Source: a phage. Taken from it: a DNA stretch of 64,000 bases. The stretch lies in the sequence record PX068455.1. One strand, given 5' to 3'. The notes under the pieces are model-generated. The model ran no database searches, was not told where the DNA came from, and saw nothing but the letters and a program-made list of their open reading frames with translations. A program made the translations under genes and the position numbers. Of this stretch, positions 21,082 to 31,170 are shown in pieces. Every line of letters starts with the position of its first letter. Position 1 is the first letter of the stretch.

Positions 21082-23859
21082 TTAGTGACAATCGCCCCAG
21101 TTACGACCGCACAAGTATTCACCTGTGATCTGGAACGGAACGCCCATCATTTTAGAAGCCTGCCAGAAGCAATGCACCACCATTTCGCCCACAGGGCTCC
21201 AGATAAGTTCAAGCTTTCCGTCATCGTTCAAGATAGGATCGTATACCGTATTTCCGTCCTTGTCAACCATTTCGTTTCCATCCTCATCTTTGCGTGCCTT
21301 TTTGTACTTATGACCGTCGAACACATGAAGTTTAGCCTCCTGCTTGGCCTTAAATGTTTCCAGCTCTTCAATTGTGTCGAAGGTGTATACGGTTTTATAC
21401 TTAGGTGTGTCAGGCACTTGAAGCTGATATTCGTCATGGTAATAAATAATACGACGAACACCTTCATCATACCATCCACGCTTCACCATTTGGTGGTGCA
21501 TGAGGATTCCGACCAAGTCGCACAACGATGCACCGCCATTTTGCTGATATGCATTAAGCAAAGAGTGTTTAGAGCGGGTCCAAATGGCATGCCCGTCAAA
21601 AGAGTAGATAAATTTCTTACCTGTTGCTTCCCAGAATTTCTCCAGATCCTCTTTACGCCCCTTAAGGCCTGGGTTGGCATCCCAGAGAGCATCAATTACT
21701 CTCTGTCCAAGTTCTGGAGAGATATCTAGCATATCTGCAACTTTATCTTTTTGTGCCCCGTACATAACCCCATATGTGACAGGCTTACCATCGTTACGAG
21801 ACACCTCTCTACCTGCTACTTTTGTATATGCCTCAGCATTGTTTTGGTGCGCGTCCCCGTTACTTACAACATCATAATACAGACCGTTGTCAAACTCAAA
21901 GGCACCCCAGGCCCCGATGAGCTGCTCTAAGTTGGACCCGTCAATACCGATCTCAAAGTATCCCGGAGGAACACCCCACAGACTACGCATCTCTTTACCC
22001 ATAACCACTTTAGGAGATGGTTTAGGCATGTTTGCACAAATACTATGTTTCTGTCTGGAAGTGTTTGTTAATCCAGAACTTTTAGCAGGAAGCTTGTGGT
22101 CAATCTTCAAACGTGGATGATTAAGAAGACCAGTATCAACCTTATCTTCCTTGATTGGATCAAGGACCGATCTGCGGTTTCGCAATGATAACCACAAAAC
22201 GATATCTTTAGCCATCTCTCCGTTCAATTTTTCAAGATTCGGGCACAGGTGTCCAAACGTATCTTTCAGTTGCGGAGAAGTAATAAGCGCTCTGGCTTTT
22301 CTACGTATCTTCCCAAACACTTCCTTTTTAATCCTTTCTGAGTTAGGGAAGCTTCGGAACTTATGCACAGTTGTCTGGAACTTGGCATCAGTTTTGTTCC
22401 AGAAGTTGATAATTAGATCACAATACTCTGACTCTAAAAGCTCGTCCATATATGCATATACTCGTGCATCAACATCTGCATCAGGTAAAGCTTTCTTCTT
22501 ACTATCCTTAGTTACATCCTTAGTTCTCCACATTGTTGGGAGCCAACCAGCACTGATCAGGTATCGCTTGATGTCGTCCTGATTGCTGATTTTCATAGGT
22601 ATCTTGCAGTCAGGCATTCGCTTCTGCTGTAGGTCACTTATCGCCTGATCCATCAGCTCTTTAGGTAAAGGGTGTGGTGTAGAAGTTCCTTTGATATACC
22701 CCCTCAAGAAATCAGCCATCTTATCGGGGTCTTTACAGCCCATCTCTTCACACCATTTTATCCCCATCTTACTTACATCCCCTGTGGAGGTAAATGCTCG
22801 CTTAGGAGGGGCTTTAAATTCTAAAGCACTCATGTCTACAGGATAGCCAAGCTTGTCTTTTAACCATTTCCAACCATTATTGGAGATTGTCCCATCTTGG
22901 TTAAACGGCTTTTCAGGGAACTTAGGCCGTTGAGACATTGATAGCTCTTTTAAAGGAAGTTGTGGTTCAACACGATCAGCGATCTCTTTCATCCACGCAT
23001 CGCAGCGGTCACGTAAAGCAATAGCCCCATCTATGTCGAAATACACCCCCTGTCGAGCCTGCAGCTCCATCAGGAAGTGCTGTAACATGCCTCGGCGTAA
23101 TGCGTTCTTCCAGGTGATCTTCTTGAAGCCTTTCGGCTTCTCTTTGGCAGGATCGTACATAAAGTTCTGCATGTCAGATTTGCCGTAGAATACACCTTTT
23201 GATTCAGCTACCAACTCCTTCCAGAGCAACTCCTGAATGATAACGTCCTCGAACACACGATCCACATACTTCCACAGCGGAAGCTCACGCCAGTCATCGA
23301 TTTGAACTTTCTGGTTACCAAGGGCATAGCCCCATGCCATAAGGCCATGAGGCCCAACAGGCTGCATTTTCTTGGTAACTGGATTGAATACTGCGTCCGG
23401 ACAACCTTTTGGCAAAGGGCGGTCAGGCCACAAGATTCGACTCATCGCTAACGTATCAAACAGATTAACCTGGTGGTCGTTGATAGTTCCCATGCATTTA
23501 GGATCACGGAACATATCAAAATGAATACCGGATAATCTTTCCATCAGCATAAAGTCGTAACTGTAGCAGTTATGGCAGTTCAAAGCCGTAGGTGACCAGT
23601 CTGAATTGCCTGTAAGCCAGCCTTCCAACTCTGAAAAATCTGCTATGCGAGCCTCAAAATCTGTATAAAGGGTCTTCTTTGCCAGAATGAAGTTCTTAGC
23701 TTTCTCCACATCCTCTTCAGAGTAGTGTGTGCGGTCATTTAGGGGAAGGAACAGCATAAAACGGTTCTTATTCAGCTCTTTAAACAAACCGCAGTGATAA
23801 TAAAGATCTGGGTCTTCCAGCAAGCCAGAGGCCTCAAAATCGAACGACCACATGCTCAT
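21082..23859 (-). CDS. DNA polymerase, family A (Pol I-like) with 3'-5' exonuclease domain (925 aa)
   Basis: N-terminal exo motif SFDFEASG; Pol A motif B KPVTYGVMYGAQ; motif C YHDE; ATG with SD AAGGAGA. Confidence 0.85.
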   Translation of the reverse strand: MSMWSFDFEASGLLEDPDLYYHCGLFKELNKNRFMLFLPLNDRTHYSEEDVEKAKNFILAKKTLYTDFEARIADFSELEGWLTGNSDWSPTALNCHNCYSYDFMLMERLSGIHFDMFRDPKCMGTINDHQVNLFDTLAMSRILWPDRPLPKGCPDAVFNPVTKKMQPVGPHGLMAWGYALGNQKVQIDDWRELPLWKYVDRVFEDVIIQELLWKELVAESKGVFYGKSDMQNFMYDPAKEKPKGFKKITWKNALRRGMLQHFLMELQARQGVYFDIDGAIALRDRCDAWMKEIADRVEPQLPLKELSMSQRPKFPEKPFNQDGTISNNGWKWLKDKLGYPVDMSALEFKAPPKRAFTSTGDVSKMGIKWCEEMGCKDPDKMADFLRGYIKGTSTPHPLPKELMDQAISDLQQKRMPDCKIPMKISNQDDIKRYLISAGWLPTMWRTKDVTKDSKKKALPDADVDARVYAYMDELLESEYCDLIINFWNKTDAKFQTTVHKFRSFPNSERIKKEVFGKIRRKARALITSPQLKDTFGHLCPNLEKLNGEMAKDIVLWLSLRNRRSVLDPIKEDKVDTGLLNHPRLKIDHKLPAKSSGLTNTSRQKHSICANMPKPSPKVVMGKEMRSLWGVPPGYFEIGIDGSNLEQLIGAWGAFEFDNGLYYDVVSNGDAHQNNAEAYTKVAGREVSRNDGKPVTYGVMYGAQKDKVADMLDISPELGQRVIDALWDANPGLKGRKEDLEKFWEATGKKFIYSFDGHAIWTRSKHSLLNAYQQNGGASLCDLVGILMHHQMVKRGWYDEGVRRIIYYHDEYQLQVPDTPKYKTVYTFDTIEELETFKAKQEAKLHVFDGHKYKKARKDEDGNEMVDKDGNTVYDPILNDDGKLELIWSPVGEMVVHCFWQASKMMGVPFQITGEYLCGRNWGDCH

Positions 23860-23917
23860 ATACAGTTCTCCTTAAAGGGGAGGCGGTTGTACTACCCCTC
23901 CCACTCTTGGTTAAACA

Positions 23918-25996
23918 TTAAAAAGGTGTTTCGTCGTCTTCAAAACCAGGAACGTGGTTAGAGGACGGATCATCATACTGAAGATCTTCCTGTGTGTCAA
24001 CAGGGTTAACAGCAGGAGTTATAACCTTATCAGCCACAACCTTGCCCACAGGTGTTTCTACAACTGCATGCTCCTGATCCTCAAACATAGCTTGAGGTCT
24101 CCAAACAACCTCTCCACCTTCCCCGTCTGTAAACATCTGCATCTCTTTATCCCAATACCAATTGCTGGCATCGTGGAACTTGCCTGTGTGGGGATCCATA
24201 ACTAGGGTGTCCGCAATACCTAAGGTTTTTGCTGGGCGGTTTTTAAGACCTACCAGCCGGACACGTCCACGGGAACGATCCACCATCTCCTCTGCCTCTA
24301 CCCCGACAACCACCCAGCTAAGTTGCTCCAATCCGGCACTACCGCGAAGGTTCTCTTTTCGCACAGGGTACCAGAAAGGTAACGGATTTCCATCCTTATC
24401 CTTCGGAGGTACAATCTCTGTGCGCTTCAGGTGAGCAATCACCAAGATAAACACATTAAACTGCTTACAGAACGCGGCTAGTTGAGTCATAGCCATGTCA
24501 AGCTCTTTACGCTCATCCTTAACATTAAGCCCTGAAATCACCATAGACAAGTGATCCAGCACAATGTAACGGCAGTGATACAGGCACACCATTTGTTTAA
24601 GCTTAGTGATCAGCTCATCTACAGGGATGGAGCCGAAATGCTTGAACACTTTGATTTTTCCGGCCTTGGCCCAAGATTGATGAATCTCAGCGTGCTCCTG
24701 ATCGGTCAGGAACTGACTGGGGTCTTCAACAAACTCTTTAACATCAAACCCCAGCTGGTTAGCGTACAGAGAGTTGATTGCTTCCTCAGGATCCTCTTCA
24801 AGGTGAATCAGGCACAGGCGATCATCCTCTTCATAATCATCAGCTTTAGGGCATGTTGGGTCCATCAAGTATCTTGCAATGCAATGTTCCAGCTTCTTGG
24901 CTACAGTTGTTTTACCACCGCCAGACGGGCCTGTCAGCATCATCAAGGTGCCTTTGTGGAGTCCTTTCAGCATCTTCTGCAGTTTAGGGAACTCTGCACT
25001 AATATCCACGCCATTGGAAGTCTTCTTACGAAGAGATTCAATGGAGAAGTCTTCTAAATCAGATACAGCATCAGGCACATATTTGACTGGGTGACGGAAC
25101 ATGTTGACAATATCTTCCAGCTTTTTAGCCTTCAGCATGTCACGAATATCTTTTACACCATCAGGGTCGTTTACCTCACCTGGGTATTCCACGTGGTAAA
25201 CGTTGTCAGCCATCAAAAATGCTGCGATATTATGCGTAGCTTCAACACCTTTGATAACGTGTTTTTGCTTCTCTACCTCGTTAGCTGCATCGTTGTCCAT
25301 TGCAAGGACTACTGTTCCGTAGCTACGGATAAATTTCTCATTGTTCGCAAAAGTGTCTACGGCGTTTGCACACCCGCAGTTAATTCCGACAAAAGGCAGG
25401 CATGGTTTTCCTGCCAGATCACCGCCGTTGATAACTGCATCAATCCCATCCTGGACTTCTTTAGCCCACTGCTTCACCTTCGCTGGGGCTTTAGCATTGG
25501 TGAGAATACCTTTTACTTGTACCTGATATGCAGCCTGCCACGCTGCAATAACATCTCCTTCCCCCTCACAAACGTTAATCTGCTTGCGGTTGTTGGAGGA
25601 TGCACACAGCTTTTGACCAAACATCTGGGAGTTGGCCTTTACTATGCCGACAACCGAGAAATGGCCCCTTTGCTCTTTAGGGATTGTCCAGTCACGCTTT
25701 TTAAAGCCAGATAGATTACCGTAGCGGTCATAATACGGAAAGTAGGTGGCAGTAACAGTTACGCCATCCTCTTGGGATAGCGATGATCGTACACCAAAAT
25801 ATTGTGCAGCCATCAGTCCAATATTTTGTTGTGGAACAGGGACAATTTTAGTATTTTCTAAAACAGTCTCTACAGTTTCAACTTCTTTTTCATCACGATA
25901 GTCTCGTTTCACACTTCCCCCACTTTTATACTTAGTTGCTTTCGGGTTTGGCTCACCGAAACGGTTGTATGCAGATGCCATGAATTTACTGCCCAT
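23918..25996 (-). CDS. primase-helicase fusion (TOPRIM primase plus DnaB-like helicase; 692 aa)
   Basis: TOPRIM-like EGEGDV; Walker A GPSGGGKTT; Walker B-like ILVIAH. Confidence 0.8.
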   Translation of the reverse strand: MGSKFMASAYNRFGEPNPKATKYKSGGSVKRDYRDEKEVETVETVLENTKIVPVPQQNIGLMAAQYFGVRSSLSQEDGVTVTATYFPYYDRYGNLSGFKKRDWTIPKEQRGHFSVVGIVKANSQMFGQKLCASSNNRKQINVCEGEGDVIAAWQAAYQVQVKGILTNAKAPAKVKQWAKEVQDGIDAVINGGDLAGKPCLPFVGINCGCANAVDTFANNEKFIRSYGTVVLAMDNDAANEVEKQKHVIKGVEATHNIAAFLMADNVYHVEYPGEVNDPDGVKDIRDMLKAKKLEDIVNMFRHPVKYVPDAVSDLEDFSIESLRKKTSNGVDISAEFPKLQKMLKGLHKGTLMMLTGPSGGGKTTVAKKLEHCIARYLMDPTCPKADDYEEDDRLCLIHLEEDPEEAINSLYANQLGFDVKEFVEDPSQFLTDQEHAEIHQSWAKAGKIKVFKHFGSIPVDELITKLKQMVCLYHCRYIVLDHLSMVISGLNVKDERKELDMAMTQLAAFCKQFNVFILVIAHLKRTEIVPPKDKDGNPLPFWYPVRKENLRGSAGLEQLSWVVVGVEAEEMVDRSRGRVRLVGLKNRPAKTLGIADTLVMDPHTGKFHDASNWYWDKEMQMFTDGEGGEVVWRPQAMFEDQEHAVVETPVGKVVADKVITPAVNPVDTQEDLQYDDPSSNHVPGFEDDETPF

Positions 25997-26750
25997 TAAT
26001 TCTTCTCCTTACTGCAGGCTCGTTTGCTAAGAATACAGCTCTTGCCCAGCCACGTGGTGTAAGGCTTCGAATCATCTTCGTCCTTGCACTCTTTCCACCT
26101 AGCTTAGCGTGTTGCATGGAATAACCACTAACCACATCAACTATTTGCGGGACAGGTTTTGTGGCGGGGATTATAAATCCATTGCCTATCCAACCGCAAG
26201 TTATTTTTGGGTAGGCATCACGTGGAGCTATAAATTCAGGAAACCATGGGTTTACATCATCCTCTGGTAGATACCCACCATAATCCGAAGGATGAAAACG
26301 GTAATCAGGTTTTCGCCACAGTGTTGACATAACTCCTACAGGGTTCTCTACATGCCACGGGCAATCGTAAATCTCTCCCAACTCTTCTGCAACCCGAGCA
26401 TCTTTCACAGCATCAATTTGGATCAGAGGATCCTTAGCCAGCTTTTTCTTAAAGTGTGCAGCTCCGGATACTGCTAAATGCGTGCACGGAGGAAATGCAA
26501 GAATAAAGTCTGGAGCTGGGTACATGCAAAAAGTTTCTTGAGGGAACCACGGGTCAATCCAATAATCCACGTAGTGAATGTTGGAATGATCGGTTATCAC
26601 CTCTGCATAACTGCCATGGTCAGCACCTTCTGCGTTAAAGCACAGGCACAGATATCCAGCTTTTGCCCAGTCAATAACTGCACCACCAGACCCGTCAAAT
26701 AGACTCCACACAACACCTTTGTGGTAGTGTTCTTTGTAGATAAATTTCAA
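25986..26750 (-). CDS. C5-cytosine methyltransferase-like protein, short and divergent (254 aa)
   Basis: Motif I-like LFDGSGG, motif IV-like FPPCTHLAVSGA (PCT not PCQ), motif VI-like HVENPVG; TTG start after SD AGGAGG chosen because the ORF-track GTG lies inside a terminator hairpin. Confidence 0.5.
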   Translation of the reverse strand: MKFIYKEHYHKGVVWSLFDGSGGAVIDWAKAGYLCLCFNAEGADHGSYAEVITDHSNIHYVDYWIDPWFPQETFCMYPAPDFILAFPPCTHLAVSGAAHFKKKLAKDPLIQIDAVKDARVAEELGEIYDCPWHVENPVGVMSTLWRKPDYRFHPSDYGGYLPEDDVNPWFPEFIAPRDAYPKITCGWIGNGFIIPATKPVPQIVDVVSGYSMQHAKLGGKSARTKMIRSLTPRGWARAVFLANEPAVRRRINGQ

Positions 26751-26765
26751 TTTGCTGCCTCCTAA

Positions 26766-26795
26766 TGCAAAAAGCCCCACCCTTTCGGGCAGGGC
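26766..26795 (-). terminator. Rho-independent terminator with GAAA tetraloop
   Basis: GCCCTGCCC-GAAA-GGGTGGGGC followed by TTTTTG on minus strand; twin of element at 16615. Confidence 0.55.
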
Positions 26796-26801
26796 CTAGT
26801 G

Positions 26802-27284
26802 TTAAACCCGGATACCTATTGTATACTCGGTGGATACCAATGTCAAATCTAAATTTAAAATTTCTTGCATCTCATAGTATGCATCCAGAGTGAGATACAT
26901 TTCCCCATCCTCTTCTACATACTTGTCGAGATGTTTGAGGCACTTTGGATAACTATCAAGGGCAGCTTTTAAGCACTCAAACTCCGTGCTGTTGATGAAT
27001 CCTTCCATCTTGGCTACCCGTTCTGGAGTAACAATAGCACTGTAGTGAGATTTAGCTTCCTGAATGCAATGGGTCCAAGCATCAACTTTCTCTTCAAAAA
27101 GCCCGAAGAATTTCTTTTTGGTAAGTTTCAGATTTTTTAAGTGCTTAAGCACTCGGTTGCCGATTACAGCCACATCACGAAACTTAAAGATAACTTTGTC
27201 GATATCCTCGCGGCCTATTTTCACAAAGCAGGCCTTGCACATCTCGGGAGCAGCGTAGCCTACCTTCCACATAAAATCTGACAT
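26802..27284 (-). CDS. hypothetical protein (160 aa)
   Basis: ORF track. Confidence 0.5.
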   Translation of the reverse strand: MSDFMWKVGYAAPEMCKACFVKIGREDIDKVIFKFRDVAVIGNRVLKHLKNLKLTKKKFFGLFEEKVDAWTHCIQEAKSHYSAIVTPERVAKMEGFINSTEFECLKAALDSYPKCLKHLDKYVEEDGEMYLTLDAYYEMQEILNLDLTLVSTEYTIGIRV

Positions 27285-27296
27285 AACACTCCCTCC

Positions 27297-27695
27297 TTAT
27301 TCTTGAAAAGCAACGATATCGTATGAGCTTGCAGACGAGCCGGGTGAAGAGTGGCTCCAGTCTAGATCATCAGAATAGTCAGCATACTGTGCACCACTCC
27401 GCAGTTTATATTTTACCCACTTACCTGGTGCAGGGTTTTCACCACCTTCCCATACTTCCCAACCTTCTGGCAATCCGTCGTCCTGAGAGTTGTCGTCCAC
27501 CTCACTAATAATCTTAGGGTTTGGAACCAAGATCCATGCAGGCTCTTCCTTCTTAGCAAGTGTCCACACAATGTATGTGTCTGAGCAGGAGCATGTCAGT
27601 AAAGTATACCCACTGTTCAGAGCTTCTGCAAGCTCTTTTTCAGCATCTTCTAATTTGGTTAGGTGGTATTGGATAATCTTCACATCTGTAATCAT
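27297..27695 (-). CDS. hypothetical protein (132 aa)
   Basis: ORF track. Confidence 0.5.
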   Translation of the reverse strand: MITDVKIIQYHLTKLEDAEKELAEALNSGYTLLTCSCSDTYIVWTLAKKEEPAWILVPNPKIISEVDDNSQDDGLPEGWEVWEGGENPAPGKWVKYKLRSGAQYADYSDDLDWSHSSPGSSASSYDIVAFQE

Positions 27696-28000
27696 CAGAA
27701 ACCTCCTGTCTCTTCAGCAAATGCAGCCGCTGTTGTTGCTGCATCCAGATAGGACTCTAGTTCACGTGCTGCCCGTTTGTAAATCGAGTGGCGCATATCG
27801 TTCGGCAGTTGGTGAAAATCCACCTCTTCTCCGTTGTGGTAAACATGCACATCAGTAATCTGTCTAAATCCATAATAATCAACATCAGAATCACGGCACT
27901 CTGGATCTGGCAACTGGACAACTGCCTGAGCCTCTACAGTGAGCATATTGTCAAGTTCGAAATCGATTTCAAAAGTATATGGTTTATAACGCTTCATCAT
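27695..28000 (-). CDS. hypothetical protein (101 aa)
   Basis: ORF track. Confidence 0.5.
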   Translation of the reverse strand: MMKRYKPYTFEIDFELDNMLTVEAQAVVQLPDPECRDSDVDYYGFRQITDVHVYHNGEEVDFHQLPNDMRHSIYKRAARELESYLDAATTAAAFAEETGGF

Positions 28001-28056
28001 TCGGTGTTCTCCTTGTCTTGTGTGAAGAGTAGACCTCTCCTTCGATATTTTAAATA

Positions 28057-29400
28057 TTACTCTAAATCTTCTTCTGAGTCAAGCCTATCTTTCACAACTA
28101 AGTTCTGGGCAAGTTTGTAATAACGAAAGCCCCCACCACCTTGCCAGTTTACAGATTTAGAAATACCACTTTGATCTTCACCATCGATCACTTTTTGCAA
28201 GCGTGGAATAATATGGGTATGACAATGATCTCCTAGCTCAACCGAGATCCAACGTCTTTTCATCTTGTGAGCTACAGCAGCAGTAGTTCCCGAACCGCCG
28301 AATGAATCCAATACTAAATCTCCTTCTCGCGTACACATTTCTAAAATCCGCTTCAAAAGCGCTTCAGGTTTTTTTCCATTTTTGAAACTAACGCCCCCTT
28401 CATTTGCTATTCCATTCCAACTAATGTCAGTCCAAACATCAGTTATTAGTTCAGCAGGCTGCATCTCACCGTCAATTTCCAAAAGCCTATTGGAATAAAA
28501 GACCATTTGCCTACCATTTGCGATATAAAAGCCTTCGACATCCTCATTTGGATGTACATAAACCTTATCCCTATCTTTCTTTGACTTCTCGATAGTTTCT
28601 TTTCTCTTTATTTTGGCACCACCGCCAATTGCAACGGATTGAAATACACGTTCTGCATTATCAATTGCAAATTGTGCTAATTCATAATCAAATGTATCAG
28701 GCAGTTTTTTCTTGGCTTCTTTTGTATCTTTATAGCCATTGGCCTTTGCAAACGCATCGGCAATACCGCACCACGTCCAACTTTTATAATGGTCATCTGG
28801 GTTTAATAGATATTTGTTATATCCCGTATCATACTCTTTAGGTATATAGATTTTGTTAAGTGGTTTCTTGGTACGATCTTTTGCATATACAAGCAAAAAG
28901 TTTGCTGTGGAGAAAACTGTAGTTCCTGTTGCTTTAAAGCCTGAAGGGCAATTTGTAGTCATCGATATGGTATTTAACTGATTTGCACGACCAAAAATCT
29001 CGTCCATCAAGACTTTTAAATAAGCCATTTCGCAGTCATCTAAGTGAACGAATATCACTCCATCATCGCTTAGCAGATTACGAATTATTTCTAATCTGTC
29101 CCGCATTAAGCCCAGCCAAATGGAGTGCTCCAGGCTATCATCGTAGTGCTCAAAATCCCTTCCGGTATTGAATGGCGGGTCTATGTAAACACACTTCACT
29201 TTGCCTGCATACTCTTGCTCTAGTGCCTTCAATGCCAGTAAGTTATCTCCAAAAATCAGTTTATTATCAAAAATATCGTTTTCGGTCACCTTTTTACTGG
29301 CGTGATAAGACTTGCTCGAATCTTCTAACAAAATGTGAGGCTCTAGCTTTTTGCGCTCGTTCTTACCTATCCAGGTAAGTTCTAATTTGGTTTTACTCAT
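28057..29400 (-). CDS. DNA methyltransferase, N6-adenine/N4-cytosine class (beta motif order; 447 aa)
   Basis: Catalytic motif DPPF (IDPPFNTGRDF) near N-terminus; SAM motif FGGSGTT near C-terminus. Confidence 0.8.
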   Translation of the reverse strand: MSKTKLELTWIGKNERKKLEPHILLEDSSKSYHASKKVTENDIFDNKLIFGDNLLALKALEQEYAGKVKCVYIDPPFNTGRDFEHYDDSLEHSIWLGLMRDRLEIIRNLLSDDGVIFVHLDDCEMAYLKVLMDEIFGRANQLNTISMTTNCPSGFKATGTTVFSTANFLLVYAKDRTKKPLNKIYIPKEYDTGYNKYLLNPDDHYKSWTWCGIADAFAKANGYKDTKEAKKKLPDTFDYELAQFAIDNAERVFQSVAIGGGAKIKRKETIEKSKKDRDKVYVHPNEDVEGFYIANGRQMVFYSNRLLEIDGEMQPAELITDVWTDISWNGIANEGGVSFKNGKKPEALLKRILEMCTREGDLVLDSFGGSGTTAAVAHKMKRRWISVELGDHCHTHIIPRLQKVIDGEDQSGISKSVNWQGGGGFRYYKLAQNLVVKDRLDSEEDLE

Positions 29401-29461
29401 CGTTTGGTGCTCTCCTTAATTTTTGTGGGGAGGAGTGCCTCCCCTTTATACTCACATCTTA

Positions 29462-29803
29462 CTACTCAAGGTCTTCAGAGTCAAGCTCAAAAAGAATCAA
29501 ACTGTGCATGCCTGCAGAGAGATCAACACACCCTGCAACAATAAGGGTTTGATAGTAAGGTTCAGCACCCTCAATATCTTCGTTAAAATCCACAACAAGG
29601 TAGTCACCTTTGTTAAAGGTGTATTTGTCCGATGTAAACGCAAAACCTGCCCAGTCACCTACTGCAGGATCTTTATCAGTCACCTTTGTTAGCAGTAGAT
29701 CTTTTTCACGAGATCTTTTAGTAAAATCGTGAATCACAACATCCTTCTCTTCAGGAGTCGGATTGCCACACACGTAGTTAACGATATTTCTCCACAAACT
29801 CAT
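29462..29803 (-). CDS. hypothetical protein (113 aa)
   Basis: ORF track; coupled to helicase gene. Confidence 0.5.
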   Translation of the reverse strand: MSLWRNIVNYVCGNPTPEEKDVVIHDFTKRSREKDLLLTKVTDKDPAVGDWAGFAFTSDKYTFNKGDYLVVDFNEDIEGAEPYYQTLIVAGCVDLSAGMHSLILFELDSEDLE

Positions 29804-31170
29804 ACGTCCCCCTTTTCTGCTCTAGTTTCAAAATCTTTCCTGACTTTCTCGTCTAAGCCAGGAAAAGTTGTATTATAAAACTCTACGACTCTCGGGTCAA
29901 CAATAATATCCACCTCTCTTAATGGACGCAACAAGTTTATTCCTTGTATCGTCTTAACCCGACTCAAGGCAACATACGTCATTCCGGGAGAGAAAGCTCC
30001 GTTCTTTCCGAGGTCCAGGTTGTAACAATCTAGCGTAAGTCCTTGACTTTTATGTGATGTTACTGCGTACCCTGATTTCAAAGGGAGTTGCTCATAAGAC
30101 CCGATCACAACCCTCTCTATGAACTTCTCCATCTTCCTTTCGGCAATATTGTACCTCTGGGAAGGTTTGTACTCGTTATTCTCCCACAATCTCGGCTCAA
30201 TTTCAACCTGTGCCCCGTCTTCCAGCTCAACTACTACAGATTTGGTCTTGAATTTTACCACTGTGGCGCGTGTCCCGTTGACATAGTACGGAACTTTGTG
30301 GGTAGGGTCAACATCGTTTGAGGTTATCATAACCTTCATCCCTATCTTCAGCCTCATTTCCTGCTCCACAGGCAGTGTGGAAGGGAACTTACCTTTCATT
30401 TTACCAATGTAGGTCTTCTCTGGGGCCTTGATGGCATCATAGAAACGTCTGTTCACCTCCTCTGCTTGCTTATTGGTGGCACAGATGGTCAAGGCATCTG
30501 TTGGGACACCACCATGATAGCAACGAGTGTTAAGCTCTGCTACAACCTCTTTTATGCGACGACCTTCACGAACACAGTTCAACATTGTGGCGAAGCGAAC
30601 AGATTCCTGACGGAACTGGTCTACTAAGGCTATATTGTGAAGATTAAGATCCTCCCAAGATTTTGTATAGCAACACAGATCTGTGTGGTAGAAGTTGAAG
30701 TAGGCCTCCTTCTCCATAGAAGAGACAACTGGAGGTGCTTGGTAGAAGTCTCCAAACAATAACACCTGAATGCCTCCGAAAGGCTTGTCATTTTTCCGAA
30801 GAAAGCGGAGTTTTCTATCCATCTCTATGAACTTGTCAGCACGGATCATGGAGATTTCATCGATAATTAGGATGGTAAATGCCTTGCTTTTCAGAGGCTT
30901 TGCTGTTTTTGCCCTTATTGCTGTCCAGTCTGACTCCATGCTCACACCTGCGGCAAGATCGAAAGTTCGGTGAGCTGTTGCTCCATTAACGTTTAAAGCG
31001 GCTACCCCTGTCGGGGCAACCGTTATGCAAGAGTCTCCATACATGGACTGGATTATGTTGATAAGATATGTCTTCCCTGTTCCACCAGGTCCACTTACGA
31101 AGACATTCTCACCGCTCATGATTGCAACAAGGGCAGCATCTGTGCCTACATCGTACTGCCCTTTTTCCAT
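29800..31170 (-). CDS. SF1 DNA helicase, Dda/PIF1/RecD-like (456 aa)
   Basis: Walker A GPGGTGKTY; Walker B ILIIDEISM. Confidence 0.75.
   Translation of the reverse strand: MEKGQYDVGTDAALVAIMSGENVFVSGPGGTGKTYLINIIQSMYGDSCITVAPTGVAALNVNGATAHRTFDLAAGVSMESDWTAIRAKTAKPLKSKAFTILIIDEISMIRADKFIEMDRKLRFLRKNDKPFGGIQVLLFGDFYQAPPVVSSMEKEAYFNFYHTDLCCYTKSWEDLNLHNIALVDQFRQESVRFATMLNCVREGRRIKEVVAELNTRCYHGGVPTDALTICATNKQAEEVNRRFYDAIKAPEKTYIGKMKGKFPSTLPVEQEMRLKIGMKVMITSNDVDPTHKVPYYVNGTRATVVKFKTKSVVVELEDGAQVEIEPRLWENNEYKPSQRYNIAERKMEKFIERVVIGSYEQLPLKSGYAVTSHKSQGLTLDCYNLDLGKNGAFSPGMTYVALSRVKTIQGINLLRPLREVDIIVDPRVVEFYNTTFPGLDEKVRKDFETRAEKGDV

Follow-up and report, generated by a model that had tools for sequence, protein, structure and literature searches.

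Phage K42, the genome of which is 95.4% identical to that of the BASEL phage KarlJaspers (Bas06), carries a 711-bp gene called "dcm" that was disrupted in four out of four escapers of retron Ec86 (bioRxiv 10.1101/2023.08.16.553469). Expression of K42 dcm raised the level of 5-methylcytosine (5mC) in the multicopy single-stranded DNA (msDNA) of Ec86, as measured by LC-MS (mass spectrometry after liquid chromatography), and no rise in 5mC was obtained with the C82A/E128A/K175A/K176A mutant (bioRxiv 10.1101/2023.08.16.553469). The defence was abolished when CCTGG in the msDNA stem was altered, and CCWGG has been proposed, rather than mapped, as the target of K42 Dcm (bioRxiv 10.1101/2023.08.16.553469). 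K42 Dcm has been reported to trigger retron Ec86/Eco1, and later papers cite this as established. Here we describe a relative of this enzyme encoded in a 64,000-nucleotide (nt) stretch of phage DNA (sequence record PX068455.1; the whole stretch is referred to below as the window), in which positions 23000-31000 (8 kb) match Escherichia phage ECP2303 (PP261279.1), one of the Vequintavirus phages in the rV5/FV3 group, with 100% identity. The open reading frame (ORF) at 25986..26750 on the minus strand, a compact and Dcm-like DNA C5-cytosine methyltransferase gene, likely specifies an intact and active S-adenosylmethionine (SAM)-dependent DNA cytosine-C5 methyltransferase of the phrog_757 family, equipped with a minimal target-recognition segment of approximately 37 amino acids (aa).

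This reading is built on the sequence, conservation, fold and homology described below, together with the published formation of 5mC by a homologue; from these we infer the activity, timing, protective effect and target of the ECP2303 enzyme. Literature searches on the C5-methyltransferases of rV5-like and T1-like phages yielded no methylome or mapped recognition site; the only relevant sources were the study of retron Ec86 and the remarks made for BASEL phages.

The gene and its family

The ORF, as read from the sequence, comprises 254 codons and a TAA stop, and the same 765-nt coding sequence is found in GenBank as WVS23701.1, labelled "hypothetical protein". The start codon is TTG (26750..26748, minus strand). 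Because a Shine-Dalgarno sequence, AGGAGG (26758..26763, minus strand), is spaced 7 nt from this TTG, the 254-aa start is preferred over a GTG at 26780. The original prediction, which was made from the sequence alone, had described an ORF of this length at these coordinates, and the strand and the start codon are the sole additions.

The ORF is far beyond what could be expected by chance. It matches phrog_757 ("DNA methyltransferase") of the PHROGs database at E=2.3e-86, residues 2-252 being aligned to positions 5-227 of the 247 in the profile. There are 4,182 homologues in the protein database and 1,017 clusters at E<=0.001 in a library clustered at 50%, and tblastn retrieved relatives from 1,508 phage records, including rV5-like and phi92/phAPEC8-like myoviruses, T1-like Drexlerviridae, Kagunavirus, Klebsiella phages and others. 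The gene is already known as an annotated core gene of rV5-like phages and belongs to a very common family with one characterised member. In the Vequintavirus records listed, the primase/helicase gene adjoins that of the methyltransferase, which many of these records label as cytosine methyltransferase. The label "Dcm-like C5 cytosine methyltransferase" is given in BASEL to the Vequintavirus orthologues of AlexBoehm, JeffSchatz, DrSchubert, MaxBurger and JohannBauhin, and the copies of V5 and FV3 are "DNA methyltransferase" in RefSeq. In such names "Dcm-like" is a functional label only, as the phage protein is no orthologue of the 472-aa Dcm of E. coli.

Conservation was assessed in two alignments, A1 with 65 sequences and A2 with 81 relatives at 28-54% identity. 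The lengths of the relatives in A2 range from 208 to 299 aa with a median of 239, so the 254-aa protein, slightly longer than the median, is not truncated, contrary to what had been predicted. It fits the length class of the compact family, which consists of single-domain proteins of approximately 225-260 aa. Truncation or pseudogene formation is also ruled out by the Vequintavirus copies, as the full 765-nt ORF is present in 116 of the 116 records found by megablast (at least 91.9% nucleotide identity). The accompanying remark that the protein is much shorter than typical enzymes of its class was correct: M.HhaI has 327 aa, E. coli Dcm 472 aa and the PF00145 profile 324 positions. To our knowledge, the compact phage enzymes make up approximately the shortest class of C5 DNA methyltransferases when compared with M.HhaI, Dcm and DNMT3A. 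Its interest lies in how little protein suffices for sequence-specific cytosine methylation.

Conserved motifs and the active site

Three motifs of C5-methyltransferases that had been pointed out in the prediction can be read directly from the translation (all motif coordinates are on the minus strand). Motif I, SLFDGSGG (residues 16-23; 26682..26705; LFDGSGG in the prediction), corresponds to the SAM-binding glycine loop, and F18, D19, G20, S21 and G22 are each at least 90% conserved in A1. Motif IV, FPPCTHLAVSGA (residues 86-97; 26460..26495), contains the putative catalytic Cys89, the TGC codon of which is located at 26486..26484. P87, P88 and C89 show no variation in A1, where T90 is at least 90% conserved, and F86-P-P-C-T90 is at least 90% conserved in A2. 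Motif VI, HVENPVG (residues 133-139; 26334..26354), carries Glu135 of the ENV-type motif, and neither alignment shows any variation at E135, N136 or P137. In addition, the segment RDAYPKITCGWIGNGF (residues 177-192; 26175..26222) is motif-VIII-like, and its function may be that of motif VIII. D178, Y180, K182, T184 and W187 are conserved in it, and Lys182 is invariant in A1.

Residue 90 is Thr in place of the Gln of the PCQ motif, as had been noticed. The residue following Pro-Cys is Thr in most family members and Asp or Glu in the others, and PPCT is a signature of the family. The view of Thr90 as an anomaly was therefore not borne out, the more so as motif IV of human DNMT3A, an active enzyme, has PCN instead of PCQ. 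Since DNMT3A has PCN, the Gln is dispensable and its loss does not imply loss of activity.

The replaced Gln could also be taken to indicate a catalytically dead derivative of a C5-methyltransferase that binds SAM or DNA, for instance a regulator or a decoy binding DNA or a defence component. Such a role, which had been offered as one of two explanations in the prediction, would agree with the very short protein in which no target-recognition domain (TRD) or motif X can be recognised, with the lack of a Pfam match for the ECP2303 protein itself and with the lack of obvious restriction protection in Vequintavirinae. We consider it highly improbable. Cys89, Glu135 and the residues of the SAM loop stay invariant or nearly so over hundreds of diverged sequences, as a working active site would lead one to expect. 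Furthermore, the 54%-identical K42-type enzyme raised 5mC in a manner dependent on the corresponding Cys, Glu and Lys residues, and DNMT3A is active also without the Gln.

Comparison with the K42/KarlJaspers enzyme

The KarlJaspers protein bas06_0055 (236 aa, encoded by 711 bp and annotated as "Dcm-like C5 cytosine methyltransferase") is 54% identical to the ECP2303 protein over 235 aa (E=4e-87). The 711-bp orthologue of phage tonijn has Cys, Glu, Lys and Lys exactly at positions 82, 128, 175 and 176, and the K42 residues C82, E128, K175 and K176 correspond to C89, E135, K182 and Ile183 of the ECP2303 protein. C89, E135 and K182 are conserved, whereas the Ile183 position varies across the family. 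K42/KarlJaspers Dcm shares with the ECP2303 protein its length class and the motifs PPCT, ENP, K-x-TC-x-W, GGKS and IRSLTPRGxARAVF; both belong to the same PHROG-type family and both are encoded in a replication/helicase neighbourhood. As judged from these sequences, the membership of the K42/KarlJaspers enzyme in the family of the ECP2303 protein is confirmed.

The two enzymes also differ. ECP2303 is a myovirus (Vequintavirus) and KarlJaspers a siphovirus (Drexlerviridae), and the ECP2303 protein has 18 additional aa at its termini. The variable loop reads PATKPVPQIVDVVSGYSMQHAKL in the ECP2303 protein and PPRATILPKEDDKDNPGWAKT in K42/KarlJaspers Dcm, and it differs from that of tonijn as well. 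Since the loop differs, the target site may not be the same as that of K42 Dcm. Given that retron Ec86/Eco1 is known to be triggered by this family, the defence might sense rV5-like phages.

Relationship to DNMT3 and to classical C5-methyltransferases

The relationship of the family to C5-methyltransferases is most evident in comparisons with the DNMT3 enzymes. With hhalign, the family profile matched the single DNMT3A sequence at E=1.5e-4 and a 37-sequence DNMT3 profile at E=2.7e-7 (Prob 93.3%, 202 columns). Motifs I, IV, VI and VIII are in register in the latter alignment, the pairs being SLFDG/SLFDG, PPCTDLA/SPCNDLS, ENP/ENV and TC-x-W-x-GN/RYFWGN. P88-C89 is aligned to the PC of DNMT3A, HaeIII and Dcm, and E135-N136-P137 to ENV. 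The DNMT3A and M.HhaI query sequences were identical to the Protein Data Bank (PDB) chains 5yx2_A and 10mh_A. The AlphaFold2 model, calculated on A1, is a single compact domain with a predicted local distance difference test score (pLDDT) of 91.4 and a predicted template modelling score (pTM) of 0.90. In a Foldseek search with this model the first 39 matches were all DNMT3A/B (E approximately 1e-6, TM-score approximately 0.5). The predicted fold is thus that of a C5-methyltransferase catalytic domain and not an unrelated one, and together with the DNMT3 profile match it bears out the C5-methyltransferase-like assignment made in the prediction.

Comparison with PF00145, to which the prediction had also pointed, gave a divided result. 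The protein itself had no match, but three of its eight close homologues that were scanned singly exceeded the gathering score, always over profile positions 4-94 (motifs I-IV), and at E<=1 the profile matched 36 of 65 family members. The sole match of the ECP2303 protein in a sequence search of the PDB was the N-terminal part of M.HaeIII, and it was weak (E=0.37).

The DNMT3 enzymes and the phage protein are nevertheless clearly distinct. Identity to the catalytic domain of DNMT3A/DNMT3B is approximately 13-17% and the TM-score only about 0.5, and the phage protein is shorter than this domain by approximately 30 aa. DNMT3 has a TRD of approximately 50-75 aa and clear motifs IX and X, and it acts on CpG as a DNMT3L/DNMT3 oligomer. 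To the classical type II enzymes (M.HhaI, M.HaeIII and E. coli Dcm; PF00145) there is no significant sequence match, and Pro-Cys is followed by Thr, not Gln, in the phage protein. The distance from motif VIII to the C-terminal motif is approximately 37 aa in the phage protein compared with approximately 105 aa in M.HhaI, and no GN motif X is identifiable.

Several points weigh against an active C5-methyltransferase. The ECP2303 protein has no Pfam or NCBIfam match even at E<=10, and the family profiles of A1 and A2 retrieve no C5-methyltransferase from the PDB by sequence. The hhalign comparisons of the family profile with E. coli Dcm (E=0.15) and with an alignment of HhaI orthologues and Dcm (E=0.13) are in register over motifs I-VI and not significant; the HhaI-orthologue profile is a shallow one, as the search for M.HhaI homologues gave only sequences more than 70% identical. 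No canonical motif X (GN) was found in the phage protein, which has only one conserved C-terminal block of ambiguous motif assignment. The evidence for 5mC comes from a 54%-identical homologue, and to the ECP2303 protein and its Vequintavirus orthologues the activity is extended by homology. The K42 evidence was obtained by over-expression in vivo in a dcm+ host and is published in a preprint with an indirect assignment of the site (bioRxiv 10.1101/2023.08.16.553469). K42-type specificity is not transferable to the ECP2303 protein given the different loops, and CCWGG should not be assumed as its target. Finally, Vequintavirinae were found in the BASEL work to be "exceptionally susceptible" to the restriction-modification systems tested, and any protective value of the methylation is narrow in view of this susceptibility.

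Target recognition and proposed mechanism

Residues 193-217 (26100..26174, minus strand) form a variable, indel-prone loop that may serve as a minimal target-recognition element. The lowest conservation and the highest gap fraction are found at residues 201-210, and the segment 201-217 varies most within the family and has the lowest model confidence; the pLDDT drops to 78-86 in the loop. The spacing from W187 to R228 has a median of 37 aa among the relatives and ranges from 23 to 77. That an evident TRD is lacking, as the prediction stated, agrees with the approximately 37 residues that lie between the motif-VIII-like strand and the C-terminal motif.

The loop is followed by the conserved C-terminal block GGKSARTKMIRSLTPRGWARAVFLAN (residues 218-243; 26022..26099, minus strand), in which G218, G219, K220, T224, K225, I227, R228, S229, P232 and R233 are invariant in A1. 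By inspection, IRSLTPRGWARAVFLAN of this block resembles motif IX of E. coli Dcm (RSLTPRGWAR / RRLTPRECAR, 7/10 identical), whereas hhalign puts the block on the TRD loop VRTITTRS of DNMT3A and not on motif IX. Similarity is seen also to motif X of DNMT3A (GRSWSVP). The C-terminal halves could not be aligned globally with DNMT3A or M.HhaI by hhalign. Motif IX, motif X and a TRD loop are therefore three possible readings of the segment RSLTPRGWARAVFLAN.

By homology to M.HhaI and DNMT3A, SAM would be bound in the Rossmann-type core of the methyltransferase, where motif I (SLFDGSGG) and an Asn/Asp that closes strand 2 would make the contacts. In the PPCT loop, Cys89 would attack C6 of a flipped-out cytosine while Glu135 of ENP would protonate or hold N3/N4, and after transfer of the methyl group to C5 the enzyme would be freed by beta-elimination. 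Approximately 37 residues, between the motif-VIII-like strand and a conserved C-terminal RSLTPRG helix, take the place of a conventional TRD of 80-250 aa, and the reading of the sequence must use the loop, the C-terminal block or possibly oligomerisation. No other segment than the variable loop 193-217 is a candidate for a mini target-recognition element, and DNA could be read by this loop and/or by the conserved basic C-terminal block or, more speculatively, through oligomerisation as in DNMT3.

It is conceivable, although we regard it as unlikely, that the family represents a distinct minimal architecture of C5-methyltransferases, which has DNMT3-like motifs, is devoid of a separate TRD and possibly of motif X, and reads DNA via the loop of approximately 25 residues and a basic C-terminal helix, or by dimerisation. 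In that case the enzymes might be unusual in their specificity or in the cofactor used (very short or relaxed sites, hairpin DNA, or carboxy-SAM of the host in part), and they would be useful as a minimal scaffold and could hint at how the DNMT3-type enzymes originated.

The short target-recognition segment, which might not permit the reading of a duplex sequence, also raises the question of whether duplex phage DNA is the real substrate. The sole substrate shown for a homologue is the retron msDNA, a structured hybrid of single-stranded DNA and RNA, and a methyltransferase of RNA (DNMT2-like, acting on tRNA) or of single-stranded or structured DNA could thus be imagined. There is very little probability of this in our estimate: it is in the double-stranded stem that the msDNA is methylated, and the gene belongs to a DNA replication module, next to the primase/helicase and not far from a second DNA (N6/N4) methyltransferase, a setting in keeping with DNA modification. 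The ranking of the structural matches and the genomic context disfavour a DNMT2-like RNA role in particular.

Another alternative concerns the transferred group. The C5-methyltransferase fold is used by phage CmoX, in which an Arg at the position of Asn304 of M.HhaI binds the carboxymethyl group, and the ECP2303 enzyme could likewise transfer a non-methyl group, such as carboxymethyl from host carboxy-SAM, or start a hypermodification pathway. E. coli provides carboxy-SAM via CmoA, the SPPC motif of CmoX is matched by FPPC in this family, R228 and R233 of the C-terminal block are invariant, CmoX binding the carboxyl group through an Arg in the motif-X position, and 5mC was the only product sought in the K42 study. 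However, the K42 homologue increased 5mC itself, and SAM-using DNMT3A also has an Arg in motif X (GRSWSVP), which we take to be equivalent to N304 of M.HhaI. CmoX of Synechococcus phage S-B43 (PDB 8yf3) is larger, its residue numbers extending to R350 or beyond, and its defining features are SPPC and Arg350, whereas Phe86 of FPPC is at least 90% conserved in the present family. CmoX is typically encoded with a phage CmoA and often with an amide ligase (CmoY), and a Pfam scan of the genes neighbouring the ECP2303 gene revealed no CmoA, ligase or other modification gene. A tblastn search with E. coli CmoA gave 86 phage records with no Escherichia or Klebsiella phages among the organisms named, and it is in Escherichia and Klebsiella phages that the phrog_757-type family is most abundant. 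A CmoA/CmoX-type system was rejected on these two grounds. The phages are, moreover, restriction-sensitive. The non-canonical pyrimidine-modifying enzyme considered in the prediction has thus very little likelihood.

Genomic neighbourhood and restriction

Transcription on the minus strand would pass, in this order, a PIF1/RecD-like helicase, a small ORF, a PF01555 N6/N4 methyltransferase, three small ORFs, the C5-type gene, a primase/helicase and a family-A DNA polymerase. The DnaB-like primase/helicase (692 aa; 23918..25996, minus strand; Pfam AAA_25 1.6e-15, DnaB_C 3.3e-13) starts from an ATG at 25996 that is preceded by AAGGAG. The 3' end of the methyltransferase gene overlaps this start by 11 nt (25986..25996, minus strand), just as predicted, which suggests translational coupling of the two genes. 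Given this overlap and the location of the methyltransferase gene within the replication module, the enzyme would probably be produced together with the replisome. It would methylate phage DNA that has just been replicated and, incidentally, the DNA of the host, in each case at a specific short site. The methylated site would be shielded from cognate restriction enzymes. The gene arrangement fits methylation of replicating phage DNA. The high restriction sensitivity of Vequintavirinae argues against a global base modification and fits a methylase with a narrow site specificity. The window contains 130 CCWGG sites compared with 151 expected; neither CCWGG nor other C-containing sites are notably depleted, and these counts are uninformative on specificity.

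The second DNA methyltransferase (447 aa; 28057-29400, minus strand; Pfam N6_N4_Mtase E=1e-43) is located 1.3 kb upstream of the C5-type gene, and in related phages it is called an adenine methyltransferase or type III Mod-like. ECP2303 thus encodes two methyltransferases, yet its phage group is reported to be very restriction-sensitive. The three small ORFs between the methyltransferase genes (160, 132 and 101 aa; 26802-28000, minus strand) are annotated as hypothetical and had no Pfam match at E<=0.001.

In KarlJaspers (MZ501090.1, 12088-12798) and tonijn (1498-2208) the 711-bp homologue is found among small hypothetical genes, with a putative helicase two genes off. The T1-like phages have a separate Dam-like N6-adenine methyltransferase elsewhere in the genome, and the pairing of C5- and N6-methyltransferases recurs in unrelated phage groups.

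Possible upstream signals and related database records

A consensus scan of the region upstream of the methyltransferase gene gave a possible sigma-70-like promoter, TTGACA-17-TACAAT (26846..26818, minus strand; 11/12 matches), and a terminator-like hairpin with an 11-bp stem, a GAAA loop and a U-run was found at 26797..26772 (minus strand); both are pattern matches only. The predicted RNA fold has an energy of -25.1 kcal/mol with a z-score of only -1.7. The candidate promoter sits within the 3' end of the upstream ORF, the hairpin follows approximately 20 nt further on, and then come AGGAGG and TTG. A promoter-like site, a hairpin and a ribosome-binding site inside approximately 95 nt make an odd layout. 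Possibly a terminator belonging to the upstream gene is combined here with an attenuator or a hairpin that stabilises the 5' end.

Sixteen records of the MG0656xx series labelled as Campylobacter phages (C15, A135, A142, C12, D1 and others; host C. jejuni) match the methyltransferase gene and its surroundings at approximately 92-93% nucleotide identity to the ECP2303 locus, and further records labelled as Campylobacter phages match the T1-like versions of the family. Probably these records do not represent genuine Campylobacter phages but are mislabelled or contaminant assemblies. The protein database also contains a 91-aa protein that is 100% identical to residues 1-53 of the ECP2303 methyltransferase and then diverges; it is probably a frameshifted or mis-assembled copy from some metagenome and not a distinct short form of the enzyme.

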